Of a stretch of DNA of 64,000 nt, positions 4,110 to 55,775 are shown one piece after another. The stretch comes from an uncultured delta proteobacterium. GTDB lineage: Bacteria; Desulfobacterota; SM23-61. The notes beneath the pieces are model-generated. The model was not told the DNA's origin and made no database searches. It saw only the letters and a list, made by a program, of their open reading frames with translations. Each line of letters opens with the position of its first letter. The stretch's first letter is position 1. The stretch spans positions 27,250 to 91,249 of the forward strand of contig CAVQIK010000002.1 in NCBI GenBank assembly GCA_963712535.1. The letters are read 5' to 3'. The position numbers were made by a program, and so were the translations under genes.

Positions 4110-4788
4110 TTAGGTTCCAGCGATTGGACTGCCTGATTTCCACCCGTAATCGTTGACTTGAAGGGATGGACTCGCGCGAGACTTTTAGGTGACATTTGCG
4201 AGACGCTTTCCAAAATTGATCCTCTGTCCCGGGTTTCGACCTGTGATTCTCCTGGGTTTTTTTCCCCCGTTTCCGTTTTTACCGGGTGGCCAAAAGTTTA
4301 CCTTCCCAGATAGAGCGTGAGATGGGAAATTTGCCCTTACCGATTGAAGTCAGTAGGTGGGTTCCAAAGGATTCCTTTGAGGATTCCCGGGTATGATGTT
4401 TGTCGCCGAGGATTACCCACTGAACTCTTCGGCCTTGGCTGGAGTGGAACAAGAAAATCTGGCCCGATGACCTCCCTATTTGAGAGATTTTTATTGGTCC
4501 CCATGCAATCTTTCTTCCTGAAATGCTGTTTTGGGATTTCCCCCAAGAATGCAACATTTCAAAGGCAAGTAGTCAATTTGGTTTTGAAGATCGGGGATAA
4601 TTCCAAAGAAGTTTTCTCATTGACGGTATGGGAACAAAAGAGTATTTTTGATTATCGTTACCTACCTTTCCCTTTTTAGCCCAACAACTAATCCCTAATG
4701 TTCGTGAGGCAATTCTGAGAAGGTATTTTCAGAAGGTGCCCATGAGACCTTTGCGAAAGAGAAGTTTGAATCGGAAACGCGAAAGGAG

Positions 4789-14879: not shown

Positions 14880-15376
14880 CATAGGCGCTAACTTAACCCC
14901 CCTTTGAAAAAGGGGGGAGGGGGGATTTTCAGTGGGAGCCGAGCTGTGTTGAAGTACTGTGCAAATCTCAAAGCCAAATCCCGCCCATTGCGAAGTAATT
15001 TGACAGAGAGCGAAAGAGCTCTTTGGTCAGGATTGCGGAGTAAACAGGTCCTTGGTGTCCAATTTTATCGTCAGAAACCCATGGGCGAATATATCGTGGA
15101 TTTCTTCGCGCCACGGGCAAAGTGGGTCACAGAAGTTGATGGATCACAGCATGTGGAAGAAAAACAAGCCAAGAAAGATAAAAATCGCGATGACTATTTG
15201 GCCTCTCTTGGGTTCAAAGTCTTGCGATTTACCAGCAGAGAAGTTCTGAAGGAAAGGGAGGATGTGGCGGAGGTTATCTACCGTACTATTAAAGAGAACC
15301 TATCAGCAGAAATCCCCCCTGGCCCCCCTTTGCAAAGGGGGGAATTGAAGAAAAAAATCCTAAGTTAGCGCTTATG
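14880..15376. mobile_element. MITE-like non-autonomous insertion (about 497 bp) with 16-bp terminal inverted repeats and 12-bp target-site duplication, carrying a DUF559 ORF and two REP units
   Basis: Left end is CCCCTTGACGGG|CATAGGCGCTAACTTA at 14868-14895. Right end is TAAGTTAGCGCTTATG|CCCCTTGACGGG at 15361-15388. The TIRs match 15/16 and the 12-bp direct repeat is perfect. Confidence 0.55.
14904..15368 (+). CDS. DUF559 (Vsr-like) endonuclease-domain protein; N- and C-terminal extensions are encoded by REP units
   Basis: Core LRSNLTESERALWSGLRSKQ...FYRQKPMGEYIVDFF...VTEVDGSQH...RDDYLASLGFKVLRFTSREV matches the DUF559 family. The likely true start is GTG/TTG near 14944. Confidence 0.7.
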   Translation: MKKGGGGIFSGSRAVLKYCANLKAKSRPLRSNLTESERALWSGLRSKQVLGVQFYRQKPMGEYIVDFFAPRAKWVTEVDGSQHVEEKQAKKDKNRDDYLASLGFKVLRFTSREVLKEREDVAEVIYRTIKENLSAEIPPGPPLQRGELKKKILS

Positions 15377-20453: not shown

Positions 20454-20652
20454 TCGTCGCTCCCTAGCATTTTAACACCGCTGATTTTGAACAGCGCTCC
20501 GGCAAAACTTTCGGGTTCCCGCGCAATTTGGAAAATATCTTTTTCGACCCCCGCTGTCAAGCGCGATCCTCCTTTGCCGCGATATTTACTATCCCGGAAT
20601 GCCGTGCTATTCTCCAAGATACTTTATTTATTTTTTGAACCGGAGGACGGAC

Positions 20653-21450
20653 ATGTTAATCGTCGGGGAGAGGATGAACACCAGCCGGAAAGCGGTAAAT
20701 GAGGCCGTGGAGAAAAGGGACGCGGCTTATATCACCGTCGACGTGCAGAAACAGGCGAGGGTAGGCGCCAACTACATCGATGTGAACGCCGGCTCACGAA
20801 TCGGCAGCGAAGTGGAAGACCTGACCTGGATGGTCGAAGTCGTGGAGGCGGCGGTTGATATCCCGCTCTCCCTGGACAGTCCGGACCCCGAAGTTTTGCT
20901 GGCCGTGAGCAAGAAGGTGAAACAGAAACCCATGATCAACTCCACCACCGCGGAGAGGCCGCGTTTCGAAACTATGAAAGCGGTGGTGCAGCAGCGGGAG
21001 TGCGAGATTGTCGCCCTCTGCATGGACGAGCGGGGGATCCCGGCGGCCGCGGACCAGGCTCTCGAGAACGCCGATTTTCTGGTGAAGAATTTAACGGCCC
21101 TGGGAGTGCCCATCGAGAGGATTCATCTCGACCCCATGATCCAGCCGGTCAGTGTGAACAGCCAAAACGGCCTCCTCGCTCTCGAGACGATCCGCCGCAT
21201 CCACCAGGAGTTCCCGGGGGTGCGCACCCTCTGCGGCCTGTCCAACGTCTCTTTCGGGCTGCCCCACCGGTTCCTGGTGAACCGCACGTTTATGGTCCTT
21301 TGCATCGGAGCCGGACTCGACGGGGCGATCATCGATCCCCTGGATCAGAAGATGTTGAACAACATCCTGGTGGCGGAAACGCTGGCCGGGCGGGATGAAT
21401 ACTGTATGAAATACCTGAAGGCCAACCGGGCAGGGACCCTGCTGGATTAA
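20653..21450 (+). CDS. pterin-binding methyltransferase (AcsE/MtrH, methyl-H4folate:corrinoid methyltransferase family)
   Basis: MLIVGERMN...ANYIDVNAG...IPLSLDSPDPEVL...MINS matches the AcsE/MtrH pterin-binding barrel. RBS ggagg. The track ORF's earlier start is probably an upstream extension. Confidence 0.55.
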   Translation: MLIVGERMNTSRKAVNEAVEKRDAAYITVDVQKQARVGANYIDVNAGSRIGSEVEDLTWMVEVVEAAVDIPLSLDSPDPEVLLAVSKKVKQKPMINSTTAERPRFETMKAVVQQRECEIVALCMDERGIPAAADQALENADFLVKNLTALGVPIERIHLDPMIQPVSVNSQNGLLALETIRRIHQEFPGVRTLCGLSNVSFGLPHRFLVNRTFMVLCIGAGLDGAIIDPLDQKMLNNILVAETLAGRDEYCMKYLKANRAGTLLD

Positions 21451-21490: not shown

Positions 21491-21732
21491 GTTATGTTAA
21501 CAAAACTCAACAAGTGCAAAAATATTCCTTAGAAGTGCTTCCGCAGTCCCGGTTTCGTTGGGTTAAAAAGCGTTCCAGACATTGTTGTAGGAATTCACCG
21601 CTGGTGACTTTTGGCCCCCCCTTTATTAAAGGGGGGCGGGGGGATTTCTGACCCAGGCTCTCCAAGAAAATCCCCCCTTTCCCCCCTTTTCCAAAGGGGG
21701 GAATTTTTGCATCAATTAGGAAAATTTGCGAT
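21491..21732. repeat. composite repeat copy A (about 120 bp unique segment plus two REP units), ending about 25 bp before the SDR start codon
   Basis: Near-identical to the reverse complement of 55776..56027, for example aaactcaacaagtgcaaaaatattcctt..aagtgcttccgcagtcccggtttc.ttgggt.aaaaagcgttcc followed by two REP units. Confidence 0.6.
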
Positions 21733-21756: not shown

Positions 21757-22518
21757 ATGGAAATATTTGACCTGTCGGGGCGGGTGGCCGTGATCACCGG
21801 GGGGAGCCGGGGCATCGGTTTTGCCATTGCCGAAGGCCTGGCTTCCGCGGGAGCGGCTGTCGTCATTTCCAACCGGACGGCCGCGGAGGGGGAAGAGGCC
21901 GCCGCAAAGCTCCGGCGGAAGAATCTAAAAGCCGAGGCGATCCCCGTGGACGTGTCGAGGAGGGGGTCGGTGGAGGCCCTGGTTTCCGCGGTTTTGAAGA
22001 AATTTCAGAAAATCGACATCCTGGTGAACTCGGCCGCGGTCATTCTCCGGAAACCCATCGAAGATATAACAGATGAGGAATGGAATTCGCTCCTGGATGT
22101 GAATTTGCGGGGGGTATTCCTCTGCTGCCAGGTGGTAGGGCGTGAGATGATCAAGCGCAAGCACGGGAAGATCATCAACATCTCCTCGAATGTTGCCCAG
22201 GTTCTGCAGCCGGGGAGGGGGGTTTATGCGGTAACCAAGGCGGGCGTGTCCCATCTGACCAAAGTCCTGGCGTTCGAGTGGGCGCCGCATCACATAAACG
22301 TGAATGCCATCGCGCCCGGGCCGACGATAACCGAATTGAACCGAAAATTTTTCGAGGAGCACCCGGAAGATTTACAGGCCCGGATTCAATCCATGCCCCT
22401 GGGGAGGATGGGCCAGCCCGCAGACCACGTTGGCGTCGCCGTGCTCCTGGCTTCACCGGCATCGGACTTCATCACCGGGCAAACGATATTCGTGGACGGG
22501 GGATCGATTCTTATTTGA
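21757..22518 (+). CDS. SDR-family NAD(P)-dependent oxidoreductase
   Basis: TGGSRGIG Rossmann motif and a catalytic YxxxK region. RBS ggagg. Confidence 0.85.
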   Translation: MEIFDLSGRVAVITGGSRGIGFAIAEGLASAGAAVVISNRTAAEGEEAAAKLRRKNLKAEAIPVDVSRRGSVEALVSAVLKKFQKIDILVNSAAVILRKPIEDITDEEWNSLLDVNLRGVFLCCQVVGREMIKRKHGKIINISSNVAQVLQPGRGVYAVTKAGVSHLTKVLAFEWAPHHINVNAIAPGPTITELNRKFFEEHPEDLQARIQSMPLGRMGQPADHVGVAVLLASPASDFITGQTIFVDGGSILI

Positions 22519-25137: not shown

Positions 25138-26643
25138 ATGGAAGCGCTCAACGACCTCTACGGCGGTTTCCAAAATGCCCTCACCCTGACCAATATCTAC
25201 CTGTGCTTCATCGGGTGCGTCTGGGGCTCGATGGTGGGGGTTTTGCCGGGGGTCGGCCCTCTTGCGGGAATCACCCTGCTCATCCCGGCCACCTACGGAA
25301 TCGACGTGACCGGCGCGATCATCATGCTGGCGGGGATTTATTACGGGGCCATGTACGGGGGCTCGACCACCTCCATCCTGATGAACATCCCCGGGGAATC
25401 CGCCTCGGTCGTCACCTGCCTGGACGGATACCAGATGACCCGGAAAGGCAGGGCGGGAGCAGCCCTCTTTATCGCCGGGTTCGGCTCCTGGGTGGGAGGC
25501 ACCCTGAGCGTGCTCGGGATCATGTTCCTGGCCCCGCTCCTCGCGAATGTGGCCACGAAATTCGGGCCGACGGAGATATTCGCCCTCCTCCTCGTGGCCT
25601 TTGTCCTCCTGGGATCCCTGGGGACCGGCTCTTTCCTGAAGAGCACGGCCATGATCCTCCTCGGCATGCTCGCCGGGACCGTGGGGATGGATACCTTGAC
25701 GGGAGTGTACCGATTCACCTTCGGCATCCGGGACCTTTATGACGGCTTGGGCTTCGTCCCGGTGGCCATGGGGATGTTCGGGATCGGGGAGATCCTCTCG
25801 GCGACGGAGGAGAGCATGGTGAGGGAGGTGTACAAGCCGCGCCTCCGCGAGCTGTTGACCAGCTGGGCTGAGTTCCGGGCTTCGATCGCTCCCATTCTCC
25901 GGGGGTCGGGGATCGGTTTTTTCGTGGGCCTGCTCCCCGGAGCTGCGCACATCCTTTCCAGCTTCGTCAGCTACACCGTGGAGAAACGGCTGGCCAAAAG
26001 GCCGGAAGAGTTCGGTCACGGCCGGATCGAGGGGGTGGCCGGCCCGGAGACGGCCAACAACGCCGCCACGGGGGGAGCCATGGTCCCCTTCCTCTCCCTG
26101 GGCATACCGACCACTCCGGCGATCGCGGTCATGATGGTCGCCCTCCTGATCCACGGCGTCCGCCCGGGGCCCCTTTTCATCTCCGAAAACCCGAAGCTGT
26201 TCTGGTCGCTCATCGCCAGCATGTACATCGGGAACCTGATCCTCGTCGCGCTCAACCTCCCGCTCATCGGCATTTTTGTCAGCCTGCTGCGGGTCCCTTT
26301 CCGCGTCCTCTTCCCCGTCATTCTCTTCGTATGCCTGGTGGGCACCTACTCGATCAGCTATAATCGCTTCGACCTTATCATCCTCCTGGCCTTCGGTTTC
26401 CTTGGTTATCTCTTCCGCAAGCTGCGGTATGATATGGCCCCCTTCGTACTGGCGCTGATCGTCGGCCCGCTGATGGAAGAGGCATTCCGGCAGTCCCTCA
26501 TGCGAAGCGGCGGGTCCCCGGCGATCTTCTGGCAAAGCCCCATCGCCCTCACGTTCATCATCATTGCCGCCGTCGTCCTGGCAGCGAACATTTACCGGAG
26601 CTGGAAATCGGCCAGGGGGAGCCCGGAGAGGACAAGCGCATAG
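25138..26643 (+). CDS. tctA: tripartite tricarboxylate transporter large permease TctA
   Basis: 501-aa polytopic TctA (GAIIMLAGIYYGAMYGGSTTSILMNIPGE). Confidence 0.9.
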   Translation: MEALNDLYGGFQNALTLTNIYLCFIGCVWGSMVGVLPGVGPLAGITLLIPATYGIDVTGAIIMLAGIYYGAMYGGSTTSILMNIPGESASVVTCLDGYQMTRKGRAGAALFIAGFGSWVGGTLSVLGIMFLAPLLANVATKFGPTEIFALLLVAFVLLGSLGTGSFLKSTAMILLGMLAGTVGMDTLTGVYRFTFGIRDLYDGLGFVPVAMGMFGIGEILSATEESMVREVYKPRLRELLTSWAEFRASIAPILRGSGIGFFVGLLPGAAHILSSFVSYTVEKRLAKRPEEFGHGRIEGVAGPETANNAATGGAMVPFLSLGIPTTPAIAVMMVALLIHGVRPGPLFISENPKLFWSLIASMYIGNLILVALNLPLIGIFVSLLRVPFRVLFPVILFVCLVGTYSISYNRFDLIILLAFGFLGYLFRKLRYDMAPFVLALIVGPLMEEAFRQSLMRSGGSPAIFWQSPIALTFIIIAAVVLAANIYRSWKSARGSPERTSA

Positions 26644-26728
26644 CCGGCGTTTTGCCCTTCCTCCGGAGCAGATGTATGGCAGAAGGCGACGAAATTGATC
26701 AGATGGGGACCCGGGTTGTGGTAGAACT

Positions 26729-26830
26729 ATAGTGAACGACTTAAATAAGTTGACATGCTGTTGGCCTCCTCTGGTTGACCCGCAAAATCCCCCCTTGCCC
26801 CCCTTTGATAAAGGGGGGGTGGGGGGATTT
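26729..26830. repeat. composite repeat: tatagtgaacgacttaaataagttgac motif plus a REP unit (second copy at 38398..38506)
   Basis: A shared 27-bp motif is followed about 30-40 bp later by a nested palindrome aaaatccccccttgcccccctttgataaagggggggtggggggattt. Confidence 0.55.
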
Positions 26831-27128
26831 ACCGGGATTGCCTAACATGCAATGTCCACTTTCTTTCGTCGGGCACTATAGATGAGCAGATTTTCGGAGG
26901 CAAGAGGTAAAGGCGTTTCGGCGCAAATTTCCATTCAGGAGGAGGAGTATGAAAAGTGCGTGTCGGTTGACCCTGCTCGCGATTCCGGCGATTCTCTTTC
27001 TGAGGGGAGAGGGAGTTTCCGGATGAAAACTGATTAGGTCTTCCATAACCTCCAAAAGATCGGGTTTACCAAGCCGGCGACCGGCGGAAAGCCGGGAGCA
27101 GGCCTTTGAAACAGGAAGGAGAACGAAA

Positions 27129-27627: not shown

Positions 27628-28713
27628 ATGAAAATAACCGATGTGCAGGCTTATTTGCTGGCCATTCCCATGAAGGAAGTGGATTTCCCCTGTCCCTGGG
27701 TGTGGGGAGGATTTAACCAGATCATGGTCGAGATTACCACCGACGAGGGGATTACGGGATATGGAGAGGCTTTCGGATACGGCGTTCCGCGAGCGGTCGC
27801 CGCGGTGATCAACCATACCCTGCGGCCTATGTTGCTCGGTGCCGATCCCGTGAATATAACCTCTTTGGTGGATGGTTTGTTTCGACAAACCCATATTTAC
27901 GGCCGGTACGGGATTACCACCTTCGGGATCAGCGGGGTGGATATCGCCCTATGGGATATTGCCGGGAAATCCGTCAATCTTCCCCTCTACCGGCTGCTCG
28001 GAGGAACTCCCGTATCGAAGGTCCCCGCCTACGCCAGCCTGGTCCGGTATAGCAATCAAGATGATTTGAGGACGGCGGCTCTACATGCCAAGAGGGCGGG
28101 ATACCGAATGTTCAAGCTGCACCAGTTGGATGCGGAAAGCCTGCAAACCGTTCGTTTGGCCGTCGGAGAAGAGGACCGGCTGACCCTGGACGTCAACTGT
28201 GCCTGGGGCCTGGAAGAGGCGCTGGAGAGAGCACGGCAATTCGCTCCCTACCGTCTATTCTGGCTCGAAGAGCCGATTTACCCGCCCGAGGACTTCGCGA
28301 GCCTTGCCCGTCTGGGCCGGCTGAGCGGAACCGCGATCGCTTCCGGGGAGAATGCCTGTACGGCTTTTCAGTTCCGGGAAATGCTGGAGGCCGAGGCGGT
28401 CAGGTTTATCCAGCCGAGCGTGATCAAAGTCGGGGGAATCGGCGAGTGGCGCAAAGCCGGCACCCTGGCCGAATTGTATAACGTGAGGATAAATCCTCAC
28501 TCCGCCTATTTCGGGCCGGGGCTTCTGGCTACGGCTCATCTCATCGCCGCAACTCCCCAGGCGGATTTTTTGGAGCACCTGTACGTTAACCTGGAGGCAA
28601 GCGTGTTCAAAGAACCCCCTCGTTTCGAAAACGGGTTCATGCACTTGCCGGAAGGTGCGGGACTGGGCTTGGAAATCGACCCGGCCGTGCTCAAGCATTA
28701 CCGGCAGGCCTGA
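27628..28713 (+). CDS. enolase-superfamily enzyme (mandelate racemase/muconate lactonising enzyme family)
   Basis: MR/MLE N-terminal capping domain and barrel metal-ligand pattern (KLHQLD...LDVNCAW...LEEP). The start is taken at the internal Met with an RBS. Confidence 0.8.
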   Translation: MKITDVQAYLLAIPMKEVDFPCPWVWGGFNQIMVEITTDEGITGYGEAFGYGVPRAVAAVINHTLRPMLLGADPVNITSLVDGLFRQTHIYGRYGITTFGISGVDIALWDIAGKSVNLPLYRLLGGTPVSKVPAYASLVRYSNQDDLRTAALHAKRAGYRMFKLHQLDAESLQTVRLAVGEEDRLTLDVNCAWGLEEALERARQFAPYRLFWLEEPIYPPEDFASLARLGRLSGTAIASGENACTAFQFREMLEAEAVRFIQPSVIKVGGIGEWRKAGTLAELYNVRINPHSAYFGPGLLATAHLIAATPQADFLEHLYVNLEASVFKEPPRFENGFMHLPEGAGLGLEIDPAVLKHYRQA

Positions 28714-28731
28714 GGGTCATTGGGAGGCATA

Positions 28732-29121
28732 ATGAAAAAAGAGATTATTCGGACCGATAGGGGTTTTCTCTCAAAATCCCCTCTTTCGCAGGCCGTCAAG
28801 GCGGGCAGCATTCTGTTTATATCCGGTCAAGTTCCCGTATCCTCTGAAACCATGCAGCTGGTTTCGGAAGATTTTGCCGTCCAGGCTAAACATGTTCTGG
28901 AAAGTCTCAAGGGGATTGTTGAAGCTGCCGGAGGGACCCTGGGCCAGATCGTCAAAACGACGGTCTTCCTGTCGGATATCTCCCGTTTCCAGGAGATGAA
29001 CGAGATTTACAGGAAGTATTTCGCGGAGGAACCCCCGGCCCGGACTTGCATCGGAGTAAAGGAACTTCCCCGAAAGGCGCAGATTGAAATCGAGGCCATT
29101 GCCGTGTTAGAAGAGAAATAG
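28732..29121 (+). CDS. RidA/YjgF family reactive-intermediate deaminase
   Basis: RidA signature (ARTCIGVKELPRKAQIEIEAIA). Confidence 0.85.
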   Translation: MKKEIIRTDRGFLSKSPLSQAVKAGSILFISGQVPVSSETMQLVSEDFAVQAKHVLESLKGIVEAAGGTLGQIVKTTVFLSDISRFQEMNEIYRKYFAEEPPARTCIGVKELPRKAQIEIEAIAVLEEK

Positions 29122-29221
29122 TTTTCTTTCGGTAAAGTCCCGCCTCTGCCGGAGATTAGGGTTCTTCCGGCCCATCCAGGCCTGCGGAAATAGGTAAGTG
29201 CGAAAAGAGGATGGAGAGGTA

Positions 29222-29300
29222 CGTTTTCCTGAACCTCTCGAAGAAAGAGACCGCGGAGCTGATCGCCGTTTACGGGGATGTGGGCGGCAAGGAAGAAGCC
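29222..29300. other. duplicated 3' fragment (about 80 bp) of the cupin gene, a gene remnant
   Basis: 29222-29300 is nearly identical to 27428-27505: nlskketaeliavygdvg[g/s]keeakp. Confidence 0.6.
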
Positions 29301-29325
29301 AAACCCCTCACTTTGAAAAACCCTG

Positions 29326-29462
29326 GGATTGACTAAGAGCTTATCCTTAAATAAGCTCCTGGGTTTAATCCCCCTTTGAAAAAGGGGGACATAGGGGGAT
29401 TTGCTTTACATGACTTGGGGAAAATCCCCCCCAACCCCCTTTACAAAGGGGGGGAATATTAT
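29326..29462. repeat. hairpin (GAGCTTATccttaaATAAGCTC) plus REP pair; inverted copy at 37006..37142
   Basis: About 130 bp, near-identical to the reverse complement of 37006..37142. Confidence 0.6.
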
Positions 29463-29670
29463 TTACGGACAAGTTCTAAATTTCGGATCCAGTCCCTAAA
29501 GTGCCCCTTGGGCAGATCAATCTCTGGAACACATTTGAATTCCATGCCATCACGTTCGAAGATGATGCGGGGTTCATTAATCCTGTATTGGATTCTTATC
29601 GCCTGCCCCAAATCCCTTTTCACCGCCAAAAAACTTCCCCCAATTTATGAAATCGGCACGTTCTCCCGGC

Positions 29671-29827
29671 CCTTAGTGGGCATTTCCATAAATATCGTAT
29701 CGTATTTTTTCGCTTAAAAGGGTTCACAGTACGGCAGAGTCAGAGACAAGCAAATGGAGTTCCTTGATACGTCCCTTCCAGAAATCTCCCCCGCCCCCCT
29801 TTATCAAAGGGGGGAAGGGGGAATTTC
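29671..29827. repeat. about 125-bp repeat plus a REP unit; second copy at 41275..41400
   Basis: gtgggcatttccataaatatcgtatcgtattttttcgct.aaa.gggttcacagtacggcagagtc..g.gacaagcaaatggagttccttgatacgtcccttccagaaatc, about 96% identical between the copies. Confidence 0.6.
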
Positions 29828-29987
29828 TGAGGCTTGTTCTCATGGCCAGGGTTTCCTTTTTCCAAACTTCAAGAGCCTGCAACATAGTACAGAAGCAGGC
29901 CGCTGCGTAACCTGAATACGTTAGTGACTTTATGAACTACTGTACTTAGTCTCCCGGGTTTCCAAAGTCGGACAGCATTTACGGGGC

Positions 29988-30245
29988 GTGTTCGACTTTG
30001 GCGGGGAAGCTCCCTACACGTTCGAATTTCAATCCAACCGCGGGCCGGTCTACGGGGACTTCTATATGAAAGGCGGAAAGTCCGGTTTTGCGTATAATGC
30101 CGGCCTGTCGGATGAGGATTCCGCCTGTGTTTTTGACTTTGTAGCCCGTCCGGATGGAACGACGAGCGTCCCGGAGCCGGCCTCCATAATCCTGCTCGCC
30201 TGCGGTCTCGTGGGTCTCGCGGCCTCCAGGAAAAACAGTCGTTAG
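29988..30245 (+). pseudogene. 3' fragment of a PEP-CTERM (exosortase-sorted) protein gene
   Basis: Ends ...TSVPEPASIILLACGLVGLAASRKNSR, which is a PEP motif, TM helix and basic tail. The open frame is only about 100 codons with no signal peptide, so the 5' part is missing. Confidence 0.45.
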
Positions 30246-30268
30246 AGTTTTCGCCGATCCCGACATCA

Positions 30269-30296
30269 GGCAGGGCCAATCGCCCTGCCTTTTTTT
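30269..30296 (+). terminator. intrinsic terminator
   Basis: GGCAGGGCcaatcGCCCTGCC followed by TTTTTTT. Confidence 0.55.
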
Positions 30297-30374
30297 CCCG
30301 TGGGTCCCCACTCGCCGGGCAACCGCGGCAACGTCTTCCTTTGAGAACAAGATTCCTGCCTTATGCTTTCTTAT

Positions 30375-30884
30375 TCAACACCGCAGACTTCGCCGTTTAA
30401 GCCCAAACCTCCTCCAAACGCTCCCATGGCTCTGATAACTTCCCAATCTTTTTCCCCCAATTTCTCTTGCCCGACCGCAAGAGTGGCCTGGTTTCACATG
30501 AATAGCTTCGGCTTCATAATCTCCCGAATCGCTTTTTCCCGCATTTCCTCCAATGTCATGCCGTTTCTCCCCAAAATGGCGGTCATTAAACCCGGGATAA
30601 CTCTCCCGGGATAGTTCTAAGACTCTTTCCTTCACCTCCGGAGGGATACGGTTTCCTGGGCTTCGCCCGGTGTTCCCATGGAACAGTCCCTTGGCTCCTT
30701 TCTTCTGGACTTTCTTGTTGATCTGCTTGGCGTGCCGGTAGGATACGCCGATCATCTCGGCCGCTTCCCTCAAGGTGAGTTTTCCCGCTTCCACCAACTT
30801 CAACGCATGATACCGTTGTAGTTGCCTTTGACTCATAAATATTTTGTCCCCTTCCAAGGGGACATGTCCCCTTGGGTAACACAT
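30375..30884 (-). mobile_element. IS transposase N-terminal (HTH) fragment, ISNCY/IS1202- or IS481-like; DDE domain absent
   Basis: QLQRYHALKLVEAGKLTLREAAEMIGVSYRHAKQINKKVQKKGAKGLFHGNTGRSPGNRIPPEVKERVLELSRESYPGFNDRHFGEK matches the HTH N-terminus of these transposases. The downstream sequence degenerates. Confidence 0.45.
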
Positions 30885-30979
30885 TGTGGTATTTTCTTCT
30901 TGCCCTCCAACCCCCTTTTCCGTATACTGACCTCACCCAAAAGCGAGTTCTTATCAATAATTGATCTGGAGGTGCCAAA

Positions 30980-31267
30980 ATGACAAGCGAGCAGACCGAC
31001 GAGTTGGATCGGCTCAGAGCGCTGTTGGACAAAGCGAACCTGCGTGTCGCTGATGTGGAGCGGGTTCTAGGGCGTCTCATCGCTGGCTGCGGCATTGACT
31101 GCGATGGTGGGTGTTCGGGCGGGTGTCACACCTGCTCGCCCGGCTGCGGCAGTGGCGGCAAGAACAAGGGCGAACTCGGTGGACTGGTGTCATATCCGGA
31201 ACAGCTCCTGCGTGCTGTCGAAGAGGCCCTGCGGCCGCTTGTGCGGCCGACCCCTGCGAAAGGGTAA
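30980..31267 (+). CDS. cysteine-rich small peptide (candidate RiPP precursor: leader plus CGIDCDGGCSGGCHTCSPGC core)
   Basis: 95-aa ORF with RBS ggagg 8 nt upstream. Six Cys in 20 residues, using mixed TGC/TGT codons. The stop lies 28 nt before the rSAM gene. Confidence 0.5.
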   Translation: MTSEQTDELDRLRALLDKANLRVADVERVLGRLIAGCGIDCDGGCSGGCHTCSPGCGSGGKNKGELGGLVSYPEQLLRAVEEALRPLVRPTPAKG

Positions 31268-31295
31268 CCTCGACGGTGTCTCGGGAAATAGCTGA

Positions 31296-32789
31296 TTGAG
31301 CAATATCAAGGACAGCCCTCGCCGGGACCAAGGGGTTGAATATCTCCCCGTGGAGGCGGAACGGTCGATGCGTCTCTGCTTCAATCCGGATCTAGTGCTT
31401 CGGCCGGACGTAAACCGGGCTGTGGTCTTTGTCCGCGATGAGATCGAAAGCGGACTGAATGGATTTGTGCAATTTCTACATCCCAGACACGCGGTCCTTC
31501 TCGCGATGTTCAATGGGGATCGAACGGTCGAAGACGGATTGCGGGACTGGGCCTATGTTGGCGGCCTGCCCGGGCCAGAAGCGGCCCGCGAGGAAGTTGC
31601 CGGCCTCGTGAGGTCCTGGGGTCACCTGCCCCTTTTGCTACCTAGAGATATCGTGGCCGGACGAGAGATTCCGAGCTATGATCCTGCGTCCTTCGTGGTG
31701 CCCGCGGAGCGAGTTGATCTCGACACACGACGCTGCAAGCAGCCAATCGATTTCCTTCACGTGGTTACTTTCAGCTGCGTCGTGGACTGTGCCTACTGCT
31801 TCTCGCGTCCCGCCGGGGCGACTCGCGAACTCTTGCCCCTCGGGCGGCTAGCGGAACTTCTGGAAGAGGCTAGCCAGCTCGGCATTAAGACGGTCGTCTT
31901 ATCGGGTGGAGATCCTCTCTGTCACCCTCGTGCCGCAGACCTGATCGAGCTCTACGTTGCACACGGTATTACGCCGAAGGTGTCCACGAAGGTTCCACTG
32001 AGCGACCGCGGGGCGCGCCGGCTCCGGCATGCTGGCCTCGAGAGCATCCAGGTCAGCATTGATGCCATGGATGAATTCTCCCATGATTCGCTGGTGAGTC
32101 GCCCCGGTCACCACCGGAAGCTGCTCGCAAGCCTCGACCACATCCGCGATGCGGGCCTACGGCTGCGAACCAATACCGTTGTAACCTCTCGAAATTACCC
32201 GGACGCCCTCCGGCTCATCCCGTATCTGGCGGAGCGGTATGAAAACCTCGTAAAGATCGAGCTTAGCCCCTACGGTCGCTCGCTCTACCGGCATGAGGAT
32301 GGACTTTTCCTCTCTGGCGAACAGCAGATTGAGCTCCGCGAGCACGTGGCAACGTATCAGGCGCGCTATCCGCAGATACGGATCCACGCTGGTGAAGGAG
32401 GCGGGACGACTGCAGATCGTCGCCCGCACGACCGAAAGCTGGAGGATTACCGCAACCGAGCATTTTGTTCCGGCGGGCGCTGGGGCTTTACCTTACTTCC
32501 GGACGGGCAGGTCACCATGTGCGAGGAGCTGTACTACCATCCGGCCTTCCTGGTCGGTGATCTCCGCCGACAGAGCATCATGGAGATGTGGAACTCTCGG
32601 GAACTTCACAGCCTTCTATGTCCAGAGCAAAGCCAGGCACTGGGCCCGTGTTCCACCTGTCCGATCTTCGCAGAATGTCATTACGGGAAGGGTCGGTGCT
32701 ACAAACGCGCTCTCCAGGGTTACGGTATCAACCAGCCCGACTGGCCCGATCCCACATGCCCGTACGCGCCCGAGCCGCGACGGTTCTAA
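31296..32789 (+). CDS. radical SAM/SPASM-domain peptide-modifying enzyme with an N-terminal extension (possible RRE)
   Basis: CVVDCAYC (CX3CX2C) rSAM cluster motif, GGDPL glycine-rich SAM motif and a C-terminal SPASM Cys array (C...GPCSTCPIFAECHYGKGRC). There is a TTG start at 31296 and an alternative ATG at 31371. Confidence 0.85.
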   Translation: MSNIKDSPRRDQGVEYLPVEAERSMRLCFNPDLVLRPDVNRAVVFVRDEIESGLNGFVQFLHPRHAVLLAMFNGDRTVEDGLRDWAYVGGLPGPEAAREEVAGLVRSWGHLPLLLPRDIVAGREIPSYDPASFVVPAERVDLDTRRCKQPIDFLHVVTFSCVVDCAYCFSRPAGATRELLPLGRLAELLEEASQLGIKTVVLSGGDPLCHPRAADLIELYVAHGITPKVSTKVPLSDRGARRLRHAGLESIQVSIDAMDEFSHDSLVSRPGHHRKLLASLDHIRDAGLRLRTNTVVTSRNYPDALRLIPYLAERYENLVKIELSPYGRSLYRHEDGLFLSGEQQIELREHVATYQARYPQIRIHAGEGGGTTADRRPHDRKLEDYRNRAFCSGGRWGFTLLPDGQVTMCEELYYHPAFLVGDLRRQSIMEMWNSRELHSLLCPEQSQALGPCSTCPIFAECHYGKGRCYKRALQGYGINQPDWPDPTCPYAPEPRRF

Positions 32790-33563
32790 AGACTCTCTAA
32801 CGGATCTCACAGGTATCCTCGCATGCTGCAACGGGTGCCTGGAAGATTTCGCTCGGCTGACCAAGCTAGACTGACACGACCAAGGGTGGCGAGCCTCTCG
32901 CACCACAGAGCAAGCAGCCCCGACCCGAGCCCGCCGAGCACGTAGACCAGTCGCGGGCCGGCCCCGCCGATCTCGCCGGCATGGATGGCCCGCGCGACCG
33001 CAAGGATCCTGCTCGTCCACGCCGCGTGCCTCGAGTCACGCCTACGAAGACATGCAGCCGGATGGCGAGCGAACGGACCCGCATCAGTCCCAGACGCCAG
33101 CGCGATTCGCAGCGGGCGTCGCGCGTGGCGCGGCTTCCCGGCAACTATGACTTCTTCATGCCCGGGATCTCCTTGCCGGTGGCCACGTCGACGACCGACC
33201 GTTCTCGAGGCTGATGCGATAGATCTCGCGCAGCACGTTGCCGGCGAACCCGATCTCGACGATGGACAGTGTGGGGCAAACGGGACGTTCGTGCAGAACG
33301 TGCCTGGTGAATTTTGAATAACAACTGCGGCCCCAAGCTCGTTACAATTGATTAAGAAATACGCTCTTGTTCACCCTCAATCAAGGGGAAAATTGCTTAT
33401 GGGAATAGCCTCGGTTTTCACGTCCAAGTTGATGACTTTCGTTTGAAATGTTGAATTCTTGGGGATGACCCTAAAAACAAGAGTACAGGAAGAAGTCGCT
33501 TAAGGGCCCGCAATTATGTGTAACAACCGATGAACTCAGAGTGTGCCTAGATAAGAAAAGTTT

Positions 33564-34265
33564 CTATACCCCCAGGTACGTTTTCATGATCTCCGGTTTT
33601 TCGCGCAGTTCGGAGATCGCTCCCTGCCAGTTAACCTGGCCTTTTTCCAGAATGTAGGCCCGGTCGGATACTTTAAAGGCGAAACCGGAATTCTGCTCCG
33701 AAAGGAGTATGGTGAGGCCTTCTTTTTTGAGGGCCAGGATCTGTTCCCCGATGGATCTGGTCACGAGAGGCGCCAGGCCTTCCGAAGGCTCATCCAGGAG
33801 AAGGAGCCGGGGATTGCCCATCAGGGTCCGGGCGATGGTCAGCATCTGCTGCTCGCCGCCGGAGAGGGTCCCGCCCCATTGTTTATCCCGATGCTGCAGG
33901 ATGGGAAACAAACGGTGGACCTTTTCGATGGTCCAGCCGCCTGTTTCTTTCCCTTTCTGGACCCCGATCTCCAGGTTTTCCCGGACCGTGAGATCCGGGA
34001 AGATGAGGCGATCTTCCGGGACCAGGCCCACGCCCAGGCGGGCGATTTCGAAAGGCTGCTTCCCCCGGATTTCCTTCCCGTGCAGTCTTATGTTCCCCGA
34101 CCGCGGCGGCGTGAGCCCCATGATACTCCGGAAAGTGGTCGTCTTCCCCACGCCGTTTCGCCCCAGAAGCGTGATGGTCTCCCCTTCATTGACTTCGAGG
34201 GAAACCCCGAAGAGGATGTGGATGATGCCGTAGTAGGTATGGATGTCTTTGACTTCGAGGAGCAT
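33564..34265 (-). CDS. livF: branched-chain amino acid ABC transporter ATP-binding protein LivF
   Basis: Walker A GRNGVGKTT, ABC signature LSGGEQQ, Walker B LLLDEPS. Confidence 0.85.
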   Translation of the reverse strand: MLLEVKDIHTYYGIIHILFGVSLEVNEGETITLLGRNGVGKTTTFRSIMGLTPPRSGNIRLHGKEIRGKQPFEIARLGVGLVPEDRLIFPDLTVRENLEIGVQKGKETGGWTIEKVHRLFPILQHRDKQWGGTLSGGEQQMLTIARTLMGNPRLLLLDEPSEGLAPLVTRSIGEQILALKKEGLTILLSEQNSGFAFKVSDRAYILEKGQVNWQGAISELREKPEIMKTYLGV

Positions 34266-35008
34266 CAGATCTTTTCCTCTCCTAAGTAGATCCGCTGAAC
34301 CTCGTCATTATTCCGGACCTCATCCGGGTTGCCGCTGAAGATGATCTTCCCCTGATGCAGAACCCTGATGTTGTCGGAAATGCCGAAGACGACGCTCATG
34401 TCGTGCTCCACAAAGATCAGGGTCAGCCCGCGCTGCCTCACCAATTTTTGAATGAGGTCGGTTGTCTCCAGGGTCTCTTTCGGGCTCATTCCCTGGGTCG
34501 GCTCGTCCAGAAGGAGCAGGGCCGGGCGAACGGCCAGGGCAATCCCGATTTCCAGCCGCTTCTGGTCCCCGTGGGCCAGAAGCCCGGCTTGCATTTCCTT
34601 TTTGTCCAGAAGGCCGACGCTTTCCAGAATCTCATCCGTCTCCTTACGGGCCAAATCCTTGGCCCGGGAGAAGAGATGATGGCTCTTCTTCTGGCCGGAA
34701 AATACAGCCACCTGTACGTTGGTGAACGTCGTCAAACGGGGAAATATGTTCAGGCGCTGGAAGGATCGTCCGATCCCCATTCGGCAAATCGCGTGGGAGG
34801 GCTGGCGGGTGATGTCTTGCCCCTGGAAGAAAACTTTTCCCGAATCGGGGAGGATGTGGCCGGTGAGAAGATTGAAAAAGGTCGTCTTTCCCGCCCCGTT
34901 CGGGCCGATGATCGAGACCAGCTCTCCCTTGTTAACCCGCAGACTCACGTCATGAACGGCGGTGAGCCCGCCGAAAGATTTGGTCAGATTTTGGGTTTCG
35001 AGAATCAT
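34265..35008 (-). CDS. livG: branched-chain amino acid ABC transporter ATP-binding protein LivG
   Basis: Walker A GPNGAGKTT and LivG-type C-terminus. Start/stop overlaps neighbouring genes. Confidence 0.85.
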   Translation of the reverse strand: MILETQNLTKSFGGLTAVHDVSLRVNKGELVSIIGPNGAGKTTFFNLLTGHILPDSGKVFFQGQDITRQPSHAICRMGIGRSFQRLNIFPRLTTFTNVQVAVFSGQKKSHHLFSRAKDLARKETDEILESVGLLDKKEMQAGLLAHGDQKRLEIGIALAVRPALLLLDEPTQGMSPKETLETTDLIQKLVRQRGLTLIFVEHDMSVVFGISDNIRVLHQGKIIFSGNPDEVRNNDEVQRIYLGEEKI

Positions 35009-35961
35009 CGGGCGGTTGACCTGTTCCGAACCTGAGAAAGTTTCTCCGCCAGAAAGCCCATGATACCGTTGCGCATGAAGAGAACCAGGAACACGACGAT
35101 GACGCCCAGGAAAAACATCCAGTAGGTTGTGTTTTTGGAGATCATCTTACTGATCAAAATATAGACGGCGGAACCCACGATCGGGCCGGCGAAGTTGTAG
35201 AGGCCCCCGAGGAGGCAGATCACGAGCATATCCGTCGATTTCACCCAGTGGGCATAATCGGGAAAGACGCTGCCGGCAAAGACGCAAAAGAGCGACCCCG
35301 CAACCCCGAGAAAGAGGCTCGAGAGGACGAAGACCGCCAGTTGGTATTTTCTGACATTCACCGCGATGAATTCCGTTCTGGTGGGGTTTTCCCGTATCGC
35401 CTGCAGCGTGGTCCCGAAAGGAGAGTGTACGATCCTCCACAGGAGGAAGATGCAGATGAGAACGATGACCAGGCTGAAATAATAGGAGCGGGTGATGGAA
35501 AGAACGAAATCGGGAATGGGAATGGACACCATCCCGTTGTCCCCGCCGGTAAAGTCGTACCATTCGAAGATGACCGTCCAGATGATCTGGGCGAAGGCGA
35601 GGGTCAGCAGGGCGAAATAGACCGCGCTGCGGCGCACGCAGAACCACCCCACAACGGTCCCGACTGCCGCAGCCATGACCGGGGCCATCAGCACCGCCAC
35701 GGCAAAAGGAGCCCCGTACCTGGTAAGGAGAATGGCCGTGGTATACGAGCCGACGGCATAGAGGCCGGCAGGCCCGAACGAAACCATGCCGCCGTACCCG
35801 AGCATCAAATTCAAGGCGCATCCGGCCAGGGCCATGATGAGCATCTCATTGACCAGACTGATCCAGCTTTGAGGAATGAACAAGGGAAGCAGGGAGAGAA
35901 CGGCCGAGGCCAGGAGGAACCAAAGTCCCGCGGAATCTGCCTTGAAAAAATCTTTCGCCAT
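35005..35961 (-). CDS. livM: branched-chain amino acid ABC transporter permease LivM
   Basis: Polytopic BPD_transp_2 family protein. Confidence 0.8.
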   Translation of the reverse strand: MAKDFFKADSAGLWFLLASAVLSLLPLFIPQSWISLVNEMLIMALAGCALNLMLGYGGMVSFGPAGLYAVGSYTTAILLTRYGAPFAVAVLMAPVMAAAVGTVVGWFCVRRSAVYFALLTLAFAQIIWTVIFEWYDFTGGDNGMVSIPIPDFVLSITRSYYFSLVIVLICIFLLWRIVHSPFGTTLQAIRENPTRTEFIAVNVRKYQLAVFVLSSLFLGVAGSLFCVFAGSVFPDYAHWVKSTDMLVICLLGGLYNFAGPIVGSAVYILISKMISKNTTYWMFFLGVIVVFLVLFMRNGIMGFLAEKLSQVRNRSTAR

Positions 35962-35970
35962 CCAGCCTCT

Positions 35971-36849
35971 CTATTCCGGTTTTCCCAGCAGACCCCAGGG
36001 ACGGATGATGAGGATTACGATCATGAGCATGAAGGCGAAGGCGACTGCCAGTTTCGGGATGATGTAGATCCCGAAGGCATTTAATAATCCCAGAATAATG
36101 GCCCCCAGGAAGGCCCCGGGCAGGCTCCCCAATCCCCCGATAACGACGATGATAAAACACTCGATGATCACGGCCATGTCCGACCCCAGGGCGACCACCG
36201 ACATGGGCGGCATCAGGGTCCCCGCCAGTCCGGCCAGATAGCTGCCGAGCATGAAGACCCCGGTATAGATGCGCGGGACGTTAATACCCAGCGCATTAGC
36301 CATCTCCCGGTTGTACGTCACGGCGCGGACGGTGCGGCCCAAAGCCGAATAGCGCATCAGCGCCGAAAGGCCCAGGAAGACGGCAAAACCGCAGGCGATC
36401 AGAAAGAGATTGTACACGGGGAAGGACAACCCCCAGATGAAGACCTTTCCGTTGACAGGCCAGGGCGGCGCCACCGTATGGTAGCCCACGCCGAAAAAGA
36501 ACTTGCACGCCTCTCCCAAGATCAGGATCAGGGCGAACGTGAGGAGGTACTGGTAAAGCATCTCCTGGGAATAGATGCGGCGCAGGAGAAAGATTTCGAT
36601 CAGGCCGCCGAGGAGGGCCACAGCGATAGGCGCGAGCAGCAGGGTCCACCAGTAGGCGCCGGGGATTTGAGCCAGAAGAGAGGTAAACCCGAAACAGAGA
36701 AAGCTCCCGGTCATGAAGATGGATCCATGAGCCAGGTTCAAGACCTTCAGCGTGCCGAAGATGATGGACAGGCCGGCGGCGATGAGAAAGAGAACCATTC
36801 CCACGCTCAAACCGCTCAACGCCTGGCCCGCAGCGGCCTCAAAGGTCAC
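35971..36849 (-). CDS. livH: branched-chain amino acid ABC transporter permease LivH
   Basis: Polytopic BPD_transp_2 family protein. Confidence 0.8.
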   Translation of the reverse strand: MTFEAAAGQALSGLSVGMVLFLIAAGLSIIFGTLKVLNLAHGSIFMTGSFLCFGFTSLLAQIPGAYWWTLLLAPIAVALLGGLIEIFLLRRIYSQEMLYQYLLTFALILILGEACKFFFGVGYHTVAPPWPVNGKVFIWGLSFPVYNLFLIACGFAVFLGLSALMRYSALGRTVRAVTYNREMANALGINVPRIYTGVFMLGSYLAGLAGTLMPPMSVVALGSDMAVIIECFIIVVIGGLGSLPGAFLGAIILGLLNAFGIYIIPKLAVAFAFMLMIVILIIRPWGLLGKPE

Positions 36850-37005
36850 AAAAACCTCTCCTCACGATGCCGGCAAGGATTCATTCCCCACCCGGCGCCG
36901 GGGCCCGGGTAAGTCGGGATGAGAATAGATGAGATAGTACGCGCCCTCCATTTGGCCTGTACAAACCGGACCGGTGAGGGGATCTACTCCTTTAGAACTA
37001 ATCCG

Positions 37006-37142
37006 CAAATAATATTCCCCCCTTTGCAAAGGGGGGTTGGGGGGATTTTCCCTAAGTTATCCAAAGCAAATCCCCCTTTGTCCCCCTTTTTCAAAGGGGG
37101 ATTTAAACCAAGAGCTTATTTAAGGATAAGCCCCTTGTCTAT
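37006..37142. repeat. REP pair plus hairpin (inverted copy of 29326..29462) in the livK-livH intergenic region
   Basis: See 29326..29462. Lies inside the liv operon. Confidence 0.6.
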
Positions 37143-38377
37143 TTCCCCCCGCGGAGCTTCTTGATCTGCTCCACCGTGTGGTAGCCCTCTTCCCCGAGAA
37201 TATCCACTTTGGTGATGTGCGGGAAGGTCAATTCCGGCGTGAAATCCATGATCCCGTACCAGTTGGGCATCATGGCCTGGTGATCGTAGGCTCGGATGGG
37301 GACTTTGCCCACGAACGTGTCCAGGGTCATTCCTTCGAGAGCCTTGACGATCTTTTCCGTATCCACGGCCCCGGTCTTTTCGATGGCGGCCTTCAGGGCG
37401 TACAGGATGAAGTACTGATTCATGGCGCCGTACGAAGGCCAGAAGCCGACCATCTTGTTGTGCTTTTCCACGAACGCCTTGCTCTTCGGGTCCTGAATCG
37501 CCCAGAAAGGATACCGGCAGGTGGCCAGCGCGCCCTTGGGGTATGGCTCTCCCTTCTTTACCCCGGACCAGGTTTCCACGTCCCCGGCGCAGGGTTGGAT
37601 GGCGTGCATCTTGTCATAGAGGCCGAAGGCATACGCCTGTTTGGTGAAGGCCAGCTCCCCGCCTCCGTAGATGCAGGCGAGGAAGAAAGCATCGGCCCCG
37701 GAATTGGCGATTTTGGTGATGTAAGCGGTAAAGTCGGTGGTGTTCAGGGGCGCCCAGAGTTCATCCACGATCTTGGCCTCCGGAACGAGCTGGAGATATT
37801 TTTCTTTGAACCCCTTGAGAGAATTTTTCCCGGTCTCGTAATCGAAGCCGAGGCTCACGATCTTTTTATCCTTCCAGGTCTTGCCCAGGGCGATGGCCGG
37901 GGCGTATCCCCAATAGGGAACGGCGTTGGTGTCGATGCGGAAAACGTAAGGATGCCAGTTTTCCTCGGTAAGGCTGGAAGATTGGGAGATATTGATGAGG
38001 AAGATCTTCTTTTCTCTTTTCACGTAATTGGAAATGGCCAGCGCGACGGCGCTGCTGATGGTTCCCGTAAGGAAGTCGGCTTTTTCGCTAAGGAGGAGGT
38101 CTTTCGCCTCCCGCAGACCCACCTCGGGGTTGAGCTTGTCGTCCCGGGTGATCATCTTCAGGGGCCGGCCTAGGATTCCGCCGGCGGCGTTGATTTCCTC
38201 AAGGGCGATTTTACCCCCCGCTTCGGAGCTGATCCCGTACATGGACATGGCTCCGCTCATGGAATGGATAAACCCGATGACAATGGGCTTTTTTTCCTGC
38301 GCCTGCGCGGGTACGGCCAGGCCAAGGGCCATCCCTGCCAGCAGTACAGCTACGATCAACGCGAATCCCTTTCTCAT
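37139..38377 (-). CDS. livK: ABC transporter substrate-binding protein (Leu/Ile/Val-binding LivK family)
   Basis: Signal peptide plus Peripla_BP_6-like sequence. Confidence 0.8.
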   Translation of the reverse strand: MRKGFALIVAVLLAGMALGLAVPAQAQEKKPIVIGFIHSMSGAMSMYGISSEAGGKIALEEINAAGGILGRPLKMITRDDKLNPEVGLREAKDLLLSEKADFLTGTISSAVALAISNYVKREKKIFLINISQSSSLTEENWHPYVFRIDTNAVPYWGYAPAIALGKTWKDKKIVSLGFDYETGKNSLKGFKEKYLQLVPEAKIVDELWAPLNTTDFTAYITKIANSGADAFFLACIYGGGELAFTKQAYAFGLYDKMHAIQPCAGDVETWSGVKKGEPYPKGALATCRYPFWAIQDPKSKAFVEKHNKMVGFWPSYGAMNQYFILYALKAAIEKTGAVDTEKIVKALEGMTLDTFVGKVPIRAYDHQAMMPNWYGIMDFTPELTFPHITKVDILGEEGYHTVEQIKKLRGGK

Positions 38378-38397
38378 GCGGCCCTCCTCCAGTGAAT

Positions 38398-38506
38398 TAT
38401 AGTGAACGACTTAAATAAGGTGACGTCAGATGAGCTCTCATAAGATTTAGTTCCCGTGCCAAATCCCCCCTGCCCCCCTTTTACAAAGGGGGGTTGGGGG
38501 GGATTT
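38398..38506. repeat. composite repeat (27-bp motif plus REP), partner of 26729..26830
   Basis: tatagtgaacgacttaaataaggtgac ... aaatcccccctgcccccctttacaaaggggggttgggggggattt. Confidence 0.55.
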
Positions 38507-38665
38507 CTTCAGGGAATGCCGGATAGCAGTGACTACTTTCTTTTGCCGTTGACTATAGGTTTTTAACGACCCTTCGCTTCAACGTCAGATATCCCACTCC
38601 TAATTACGGTGAGTACGGGCAGTGTGACACCGGGAAAGCGACAATCTGACTATGAACCTTGACGC

Positions 38666-40951: not shown

Positions 40952-41150
40952 ATTTGCTCCTTTCTCCCCCTCACCCTCCCCTCTCCCCCGGAAGCGGGGG
41001 AGAGGGTAATTGAAAGGGTCCTTTGAACCTTTAAACCCGATGTCGATCAGGCAGCGGGCTCATTACTAATCGCCGGCCCACGTACCGGCGACCCGGCGGC
41101 TCGTCCTACTCTCTTCCAGTGGGAAAAGGCGGGGGCGGAAAGCGACAAAT

Positions 41151-41274: not shown

Positions 41275-41400
41275 CCTAAGTGGGCATTTCCATAAATATC
41301 GTATCGTATTTTTTCGCTAAAGGGTTCACAGTACGGCAGAGTCGGACAAGCAAATGGAGTTCCTTGATACGTCCCTTCCAGAAATCCCCCGCCCCCTTTA
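41275..41400. repeat. second copy of the about 125-bp repeat (see 29671..29827) with a truncated REP
   Basis: About 96% identical to 29671..29795. Confidence 0.6.
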
Positions 41401-41606
41401 TACTACTGTCACGTAAGCTTATTGCATCTTCGGCAAACCCCCTCACCCTCGCCCTCTCCCCCGTTGCTGGGGGAGAGGGCTGGGGTGAGGGGCAAAGGCC
41501 GACCAAAGGTGAGATCCAGCAACATTCTGCGGATGCCCTTCCCGGCCAATAGAAACAAGGCTCCGCCATACGATTGCTGATGTTTTTTTGCACCTGATGG
41601 GTTAAG

Positions 41607-55739: not shown

Positions 55740-55775
55740 TTTTCCCCCTCTTCCACCCAAATCTAATGCAAACGA

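Follow-up and report, generated by a model that had tools for sequence, protein, structure and literature searches.

A 216-bp intergenic element with an embedded REP doublet, probably of the MITE type, upstream of two unrelated dehydrogenase genes in an uncultured delta proteobacterium

Introduction

Bacterial MITEs are defined as elements shorter than 500 bp, with terminal inverted repeats (TIRs) of 4–30 bp and flanking direct repeats, that are located in intergenic DNA and give stable RNA hairpins (PMC10969869, PMC3184786). The Correia elements of Neisseria and the Chunjie element of Geobacter uraniireducens are non-coding, ~200 bp long, dispersed in intergenic copies and equipped with TIRs, short flanking repeats and a stable predicted RNA hairpin, and the 216-bp element described here resembles them in these points, its ends being TIR-like. 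Like many MITE copies, it is found shortly before genes and inside operon-like clusters (PMC10969869, PMC3184786). However, Correia elements are flanked by TA duplications, whereas 3-bp duplications and a weak TIR were found here; Chunjie was considered as a relative and set aside as a different family, having 21-bp TIRs and 9-bp direct repeats (PMC3184786). Unlike these MITEs, the present element is asymmetric, with an unstructured half of 110 nt and a half formed by a REP doublet, and is not one long palindrome. Beyond its own copies, nothing similar in sequence was detected in the collections searched.

Three other groups of small repeats are close enough to be compared. REPINs, described as doublets only (PMC3116915), resemble the internal 87-nt module of the element, in which two inverted REP units are separated by a ~19-nt spacer and form a long hairpin, and the same REP family is scattered in the genome as singlets and doublets, as is the case for REPINs (PMC3116915, PMC3337134). 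The mobile unit differs from REPINs, however, by an additional 110 nt of non-REP sequence, terminal tails and 3-bp duplications, and no RAYT gene is present in the available sequence. SPRITE-like terminator repeats, as far as PMC3049150 is summarised in PMC10969869, are likewise small and dispersed, carry a hairpin followed by a T-run and cluster with other intergenic repeat families; their sequence and host are unrelated, and the hairpin considered here is one arm of the REP doublet within a larger element. [quoted passage not shown]

Copies of the element and their gene contexts

Two full copies are present in the window, by which we mean the whole 64-kb stretch of DNA that was analysed, together with a probable degenerate relative:

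Copy A, 21505–21720, plus strand: element of 216 bp, ACTCAACAAGTGC...GCATCAATTAGG, delimited by three-way alignment (nhmmer 268 bits)
Copy B, 55790–56005, minus strand: element of 216 bp, 93.8% identical to copy A
Copy D, 41490–41604, minus strand: probable degenerate relative of the unique core of the element, ~57% identity (nhmmer 15.4 bits, E ~0.003)

The initial annotation had placed a near-identical pair at 21491–21732 and 55776–56027. Such a pair is indeed there, and its limits were refined to 21505–21720 (+) and 56005–55790 (−) by an alignment of three sequences that included a third copy, copy C, from a metagenomic contig (L026). BLAST of copy A against copy B gave 93.8% identity across 226 nt, the block common to both being ~225 bp, and the flanks are unrelated. 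For each of three sub-segments of 20–24 nt, the 64-kb window has two occurrences and no more when up to three mismatches are admitted, and none was found in 100 dinucleotide shuffles.

Copy A is preceded directly by a co-oriented pterin-binding gene (20599–21450, +) and followed by an SDR gene (21757–22518, +; PF00106/PF13561). Copy B is preceded directly by the co-oriented TctB gene (56572–56117, −) and followed by a gene for a HIBADH-like dehydrogenase (55739–54807, −; PF03446/PF14833). As had been claimed, both copies point toward the downstream gene, and the two downstream proteins are not homologous: they belong to different Pfam families and their similarity is not significant. It had also been claimed that each copy ends 25–35 bp before a start codon; both do stop just upstream of one, but the distance from the true end of the element is 36 nt for copy A (ATG at 21757) and 50 nt for copy B (ATG at 55739), the ends taken earlier being slightly longer. 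Since each copy also lies directly 3′ of a co-oriented gene, the term "5′ flank" is one of two equally valid descriptions, and the element is an insert between co-directional genes, not simply upstream sequence.

Copy C (JGI contig Ga0105106_10388992, L026 positions 376–161) is 216 bp long, lies on a 1-kb contig and is 95.4% identical to copy A and 94.0% to copy B. On one side it is bordered by the 3′ end of a thiF/moeB-like gene and on the other by the start of a thiW-like gene, and its polarity is that of the other copies. It was found by a metagenome scan with a 19-mer, which also gave 10 chance matches. A metagenome scan with a 22-mer from the second conserved block gave no match, a scan of the genome collection with a 21-mer gave a single match, in Gramella, by chance, and the k-mer matches in viral contigs, plasmids and phages were all due to chance. 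Copy D scores higher (15.4 bits) than the best of 100 dinucleotide-shuffled windows (13.9) and lies, again with the same polarity, between co-oriented genes for an HpcH-like aldolase and Iso_dh. Next to it comes a different palindromic repeat (41493–41440). Another element has inserted at the right end of copy D, and no flanking duplication could be reconstructed for this copy.

The window and the scanned collections thus hold three full copies and one relic, dispersed over four different gene contexts (pterin-binding/SDR, TctB/HIBADH-like, thiF/thiW and aldolase/Iso_dh) and ending 36–68 nt before the start of the downstream gene. Further copies in random orientation relative to genes, by which the initial annotation would have recognised a plain mobile repeat, were not encountered, the third copy and the degenerate fourth keeping the same polarity. 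All four copies share one polarity between co-oriented genes, which at p ~0.125 is not significant.

Termini and target-site duplications

Copies A, B and C are all 216 bp long in the three-way alignment, with identical first and last bases and the ends ACTCAACAAGTGC...GCATCAWTTAGG. The flanking repeats and terminal sequences are as follows:

AAA, 21502–21504, plus strand: left 3-bp direct repeat of copy A, read from the sequence
AAA, 21721–21723, plus strand: right 3-bp direct repeat of copy A, read from the sequence
TAA, 56006–56008, minus strand: left 3-bp direct repeat of copy B, read from the sequence
TAA, 55787–55789, minus strand: right 3-bp direct repeat of copy B, read from the sequence
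ACTCAACAAGTGCAAAAATATTCC, 21505–21528, plus strand: left terminal inverted-repeat-like end (copy B, 56005–55982)
GGAATTTTTGCATCAATTAGG, 21700–21720, plus strand: right terminal inverted-repeat-like end (copy B, 55810–55790)

Copy C is flanked on both sides by TCT, and a target-site duplication accompanies all three full copies. The chance of three such 3-mer matches is ~1.3e-4 for AT-rich 3-mers, or ~3e-3 after 25 alternative choices of boundary and length. The end pair, which may also be written ACTCAACAAGTGCAAAAATATTCC / GGAATTTTTGCATCAWTTAGG, forms an imperfect inverted repeat of ~22 nt in which ~15 of 22 positions match. Its perfect 9-nt core, TGCAAAAAT, is located 10 nt from the left tip and recurs in reverse complement at 9 nt from the right tip, and in the predicted consensus fold the two ends pair. 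As 51 of 2000 shuffles (2.5%) score as well, the inverted repeat, taken alone, would count as moderate evidence. The target flanks of A and B are somewhat alike (TATGT..AAATTT..TTTC), which could reflect a preference for certain targets or a duplicated unit that is slightly larger. At ~37000, beside free-standing REP hairpins, the sequence GGAATATTATTTGCGGATTAG resembles the right end of the element, and so the "TIR" may be REP-associated rather than IS-derived. The earlier view of the intergenic flank itself as the duplicated unit, and a portable one, is upheld by the discrete ends, the target-site duplications and the presence of the third copy in an unrelated context.

Internal structure

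The element was expected to consist of a unique stretch, two REP units and a shared tail, and this anatomy proved correct, with 110 nt of non-REP sequence, two facing REP half-units and a tail of ~20 nt:

21505–21614, plus strand: non-REP unique core, 110 nt (copy B, 56005–55897), a sequence confined to the element copies
21615–21701, plus strand: REPIN-like REP doublet, 87 nt (copy B, 55896–55809), two half-REPs facing each other
21615–21636, plus strand: hairpin 1 of the doublet
21638–21647, plus strand: outer arm, GGGGGGATTT
21648–21666, plus strand: spacer of the doublet
21667–21677, plus strand: outer arm, AAAATCCCCCC
21681–21701, plus strand: hairpin 3 of the doublet
21679–21710, plus strand: terminator-like stem-loop, 11-bp stem followed by TTTTT (copy B, 55831–55800), consensus match in A, B and C
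21700–21720, plus strand: tail of ~20 nt that closes copy A

The core contains a direct repeat, AAGTGC-N15-AAGTGC (21512–21517 and 21533–21538), and a small palindrome, TCACC-GCT-GGTGA (21595–21607). The REP doublet is predicted to fold into one long 87-nt hairpin, which is the REPIN architecture, and it occurs as a free-standing module at 37017–37103 and 29454–29370. The REP family found throughout the window is a nested palindrome, AAATCCCCCC-nn-CCCCCCTTT-loop-AAAGGGGGG-nn-GGGGGGATTT, of which full units, half units and doublets occur, with at least 15 hairpins over the 64 kb. In a REPIN the repeated unit is two inverted REPs around a short spacer; here it is 216 bp long and includes 110 nt of non-REP sequence.

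The folding of the element follows this division. The 110-nt unique part folds no better than its shuffles on either strand (z = +0.34 and +0.76), and the z of −3.1 obtained for the whole element is due to the REP doublet. Among the three sequences, a double change was found in 1 of 68 predicted pairs. The covariance-model search proposed for the unique part gave nothing: Rfam at the gathering threshold had no match in the whole window, and at E<10 copies A and B and the contig of copy C gave only sub-threshold hairpin noise (miRNA precursors, U4atac). No conserved ORF or ribosome-binding site was found, the short ORFs changing frame between copies. A 30-codon frame from a GTG in the left end was considered and discarded; it has no ribosome-binding site, a frameshift interrupts it in copy A, and synonymous changes are not favoured among its substitutions.

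Occurrence in related strains and genomes

Two ENA metagenome contigs (L012 and L013) represent strain-level relatives, 98–98.6% identical, with A and B at the same positions. Copy A is 99.6–100% conserved in L012, within an intergenic region of 99.7% identity (1 of 306 positions differs), and copy B is 99.2% identical in L013 (3 of 376 intergenic positions differ); between the strains, both intergenic regions diverge less than their surroundings (1.4–2.1%). TctA, encoded by one 501-aa ORF in the window (25138–26643), is represented in L012 (13382–14888) by ORFs of 201 and 315 aa, the split being due to a frameshift or to misassembly of that contig.

A more distant relative, the MAG GCA_040960625.1, has amino-acid identities of 84% and 80% for the two dehydrogenases and keeps the synteny of both regions (SDR-235aa-Tct and TctACB-...-HIBADH-amidohydrolase-MR/MLE). 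No trace of the unique part was found upstream of its SDR (L002) and HIBADH (L014) orthologues, and the element is absent upstream of the thiW orthologue (L028). In the relative of the copy C locus (ThiF 87% identical in amino acids), the gap between thiF and thiW is 80–106 bp, compared with 526 bp in the contig of copy C. The absence from these loci and the short spacers there indicate that the element is lineage-specific and sits where relatives have short spacers. An exact empty site was recovered for none of A, B and C, the L002, L014 and L028 spacers being too diverged and both 98% strains carrying A or B. The gene content beside copy B also varies: the related MAG (L014, 4407–5846) has a cluster headed by a GntR regulator, in which tctB and the HIBADH-like gene are separated by an acetyl-CoA hydrolase/transferase gene; the latter gene is missing from the window (55740–56116), where the spacer holds copy B.

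Nature of the element

The 216-bp size, well below 500 bp, the non-coding character of all three full copies, the dispersed copies with sharp ends and 3-bp duplications, the AT-rich intergenic targets and the hairpin fit the definition of MITEs, and it is for these reasons that we read the element as a non-autonomous transposable element that represents a new MITE family and was inserted between unrelated gene pairs (probability roughly 0.7). It is an ordinary kind of bacterial repeat, and neither a riboswitch nor a demonstrated promoter.

It is proposed that a transposase encoded elsewhere in the genome would act in trans on the imperfect terminal inverted repeats, whose core TGCAAAAAT lies ~10 nt from the tips, and that insertion into AT-rich intergenic DNA would proceed by a 3-bp staggered cut, giving the 3-bp direct repeats. 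Duplications of 3 bp occur in IS3, IS30 and some IS5-group elements. The cargo would be the 110-nt unstructured core together with the REP doublet, which also exists independently in the genome. Neither a transposase nor an IS with matching ends was found in the 64-kb window or in ~40 kb of related loci. As for the composite origin, either a REPIN was inserted into an older MITE, or REP-adjacent sequence gave rise to the ends.

The MITE reading accounts for the near-identical 5′ flank of two unrelated dehydrogenase genes without a new regulatory RNA, and it warns annotators against calling a riboswitch or a common operator at such places. It also contributes a MITE family with a built-in REP doublet, from an uncultured and little-studied lineage that has several active intergenic repeat families.

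Possible effect on neighbouring genes

The only consistent signal among the copies is the terminator-like hairpin with a T-run that faces the upstream gene. A consensus match to a hairpin followed by TTTTT(T) is present in all three full copies, on the sense strand only and each time 3′ of a co-oriented gene. A hairpin and U-run of this appearance, acting as terminator or 3′-end stabiliser, were described for REPs and SPRITE elements (PMC3184786, PMC10969869). Transcripts of the upstream gene would gain a very stable, GC-rich hairpin of 87 nt and then a U-run, and the hairpin may act as an intrinsic terminator and/or a 3′-end stabiliser, leaving the downstream gene partly uncoupled. Judged from the shared polarity, a polar effect, by termination or at the mRNA 3′ end, is plausible. 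As regards the downstream gene, nothing in the sequence shows a start signal.

In the related MAG, tctACB and HIBADH form one co-oriented cluster behind the GntR gene, so that insertion B may divide an operon. Should the sense-only terminator be functional, the insertions would split operon-like clusters (tctACB to HIBADH, thiF to thiW), which, if true, would be a concrete and testable case of mobile DNA reshaping transcription units.

Alternative explanations

The initial annotation had suggested a portable promoter or 5′-UTR. In its developed form this explanation holds that the element is mobile but was retained for driving or tuning the downstream gene, in the manner of promoter-bearing Correia subtypes or Neisseria REP2. 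We consider it unlikely. MITE-borne promoters are well documented (PMC10969869), the three full copies and the relic all point to the downstream gene and end close to its start, and a compensating promoter would make sense given that a sense-strand terminator would otherwise silence the downstream genes. An extended −10-like sequence, TGCAAAAAT, is present in the left end, and the consensus scan gave one promoter-like match, TTAACA-18-AATATT, in copy A. However, this match uses flank sequence and is absent from B and C, and no sigma-70-like promoter common to the three copies was found by the scan. Transcription from the left end would need to pass the 87-nt GC hairpin and the terminator-like U-run, the element has no ribosome-binding site or ATG, and the common orientation of four copies is, as given above, not significant. 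The element is also absent at the orthologues in relatives, and the suggested promoter function is not borne out.

Two candidate signals at the right end were examined and rejected. For an outward sigma-70 promoter, TTGCAT would have to be combined with −10-like hexamers of the flank, and the spacing, assessed by eye and by the scan, is wrong in all three copies. For sigma-54, a GG-N10-GC arrangement with TTGCA fits only 7 of 12 consensus positions; the motif TGGCAC-N5-TTGC is no commoner in the window than expected by chance, and no gene for an enhancer-binding protein or activator was found nearby. These sigma-54 results speak against a promoter cassette as well.

A second explanation combines both kinds of mobile DNA. 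In this chimera, a REPIN of the HUH/RAYT type would have been captured in a DDE-type MITE and kept in one polarity as a portable transcription insulator, with a strong terminator or 3′-end stabiliser for the upstream gene and an unrecognised start signal for the downstream one. We regard it as improbable too; if true, it would mean that operon boundaries were rewired in TTT-transporter-linked catabolic clusters of this lineage.

Less probable still is a REPIN- or REP-type element mobilised via ssDNA by a RAYT/IS200-like HUH transposase, with the core hitch-hiking and the 3-bp repeats due to coincidence or target reuse. The inverted REP doublet is bona fide and folds into one long hairpin, it is found independently elsewhere in the window, where REP units are abundant, and the right end of the element resembles sequence adjoining other REP units. 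The shared orientation of the copies would also suit ssDNA transposition, of which strand or orientation bias is typical. Against this, 3-bp duplications flank all three full copies, and duplications are not known from REPIN or IS200/IS605 transposition. The repeated unit is, moreover, asymmetric and 2.5 times as long as the doublet, and no RAYT (Y1_Tnp) gene was found in the 64-kb window and ~40 kb of related loci.

The remaining explanation, a shared cis-regulatory region or a structured, riboswitch-like leader RNA of co-regulated catabolic operons, kept alike by selection or gene conversion, is largely refuted and very improbable: both window copies do precede dehydrogenase-led clusters linked to TTT transporters, their intergenic regions do differ less between strains than the surroundings, and the core does hold the AAGTGC repeat and the small palindrome, but there is no Rfam family, the unique part folds no better than shuffles, a double change affects only one predicted pair, copy C precedes thiW, the function of which is unrelated, sharp common ends with duplications are not expected of a conserved operator, and relatives lack the element before their SDR, HIBADH and thiW orthologues, where a riboswitch or leader would be conserved across species. 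Neither the riboswitch-like leader nor the shared regulatory site of the initial annotation is thus retained.

Other repeats and features of the window

Several further repeats are present in the window besides the putative MITE. A REP-carrying composite block at 29678–29945 is missing from the strain contig L012 (17917–17922), which is 98.6% identical, and stands out against it as a clean insertion of 268 bp. It has the 6-bp sequence CTTAGT on both sides, and the corresponding junction in L012 reads GGCCCTTAGT|CTCCCGGG. This block is an insertion-polymorphic MITE-like element, unrelated to the one studied here, and its clean insertion relative to the sister strain indicates that REP-carrying composites move in this lineage. 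A second, internally deleted copy of it adjoins relic D at ~41282–41410.

Two other composites include REP units. A repeat of ~155 bp around a REP doublet is found at 29320–29475 (−) and 36990–37150 (+), with 88% identity between the copies and flanks of its own (TTTAGAACT...GCTTATTTAAGGATAAGC); one of them, CTAATCCGCAAATAATATTCCCCCC, is similar to the right end of the studied element in reverse complement. Another repeat, at 26724–26837 and 38394–38512, consists of a 31-nt block of 94% identity and a full REP unit. Its copies are on the same strand, one located between plus-strand genes and one between minus-strand genes, and this family is therefore not orientation-locked to its neighbours.

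A DUF559/MTES_1575 endonuclease-like ORF (14948–15367, annotated in L012) is bracketed by half-REPs at 14897–14938 and 15309–15342. They are inverted, as in REP doublets, with ~385 bp between them, and the ORF extends at its 3′ end into the second REP. In the 64 kb and ~40 kb of related loci, this is the only gene flanked by inverted half-REPs. By analogy, the arrangement resembles RAYT genes flanked by REPs, and the ORF is perhaps a selfish gene associated with REPs.

At least three further palindromic intergenic families were recognised: GGTGCGTTCCCCGAACGCACC; CCCCTCACCC...GGGTGAGGGG; and GTCA(C/T)(C/T)CCGG...CCGG..GAC. Their loci are 56018–56077 and 57710–57769; 40966–41000 and 41438–41493; 47784–47842 and 52459–52517; L026 495–601; and L014 ~4300–4370. 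One palindromic pair forms 60-nt inverted repeats that bracket tctC-tctB directly beside copy B, and repeats of different families cluster in the same spacers.

On a larger scale, the window contains three or more paralogous sets of TTT transporters (inverted repeats I1–I3). The cumulative GC skew peaks at ~28000–38000, where gene orientation switches from mostly plus to mostly minus. Copies A (+) and B (−) lie on opposite sides of this peak and would thus have the same polarity with respect to replication too, if the region is a terminus-like switch.
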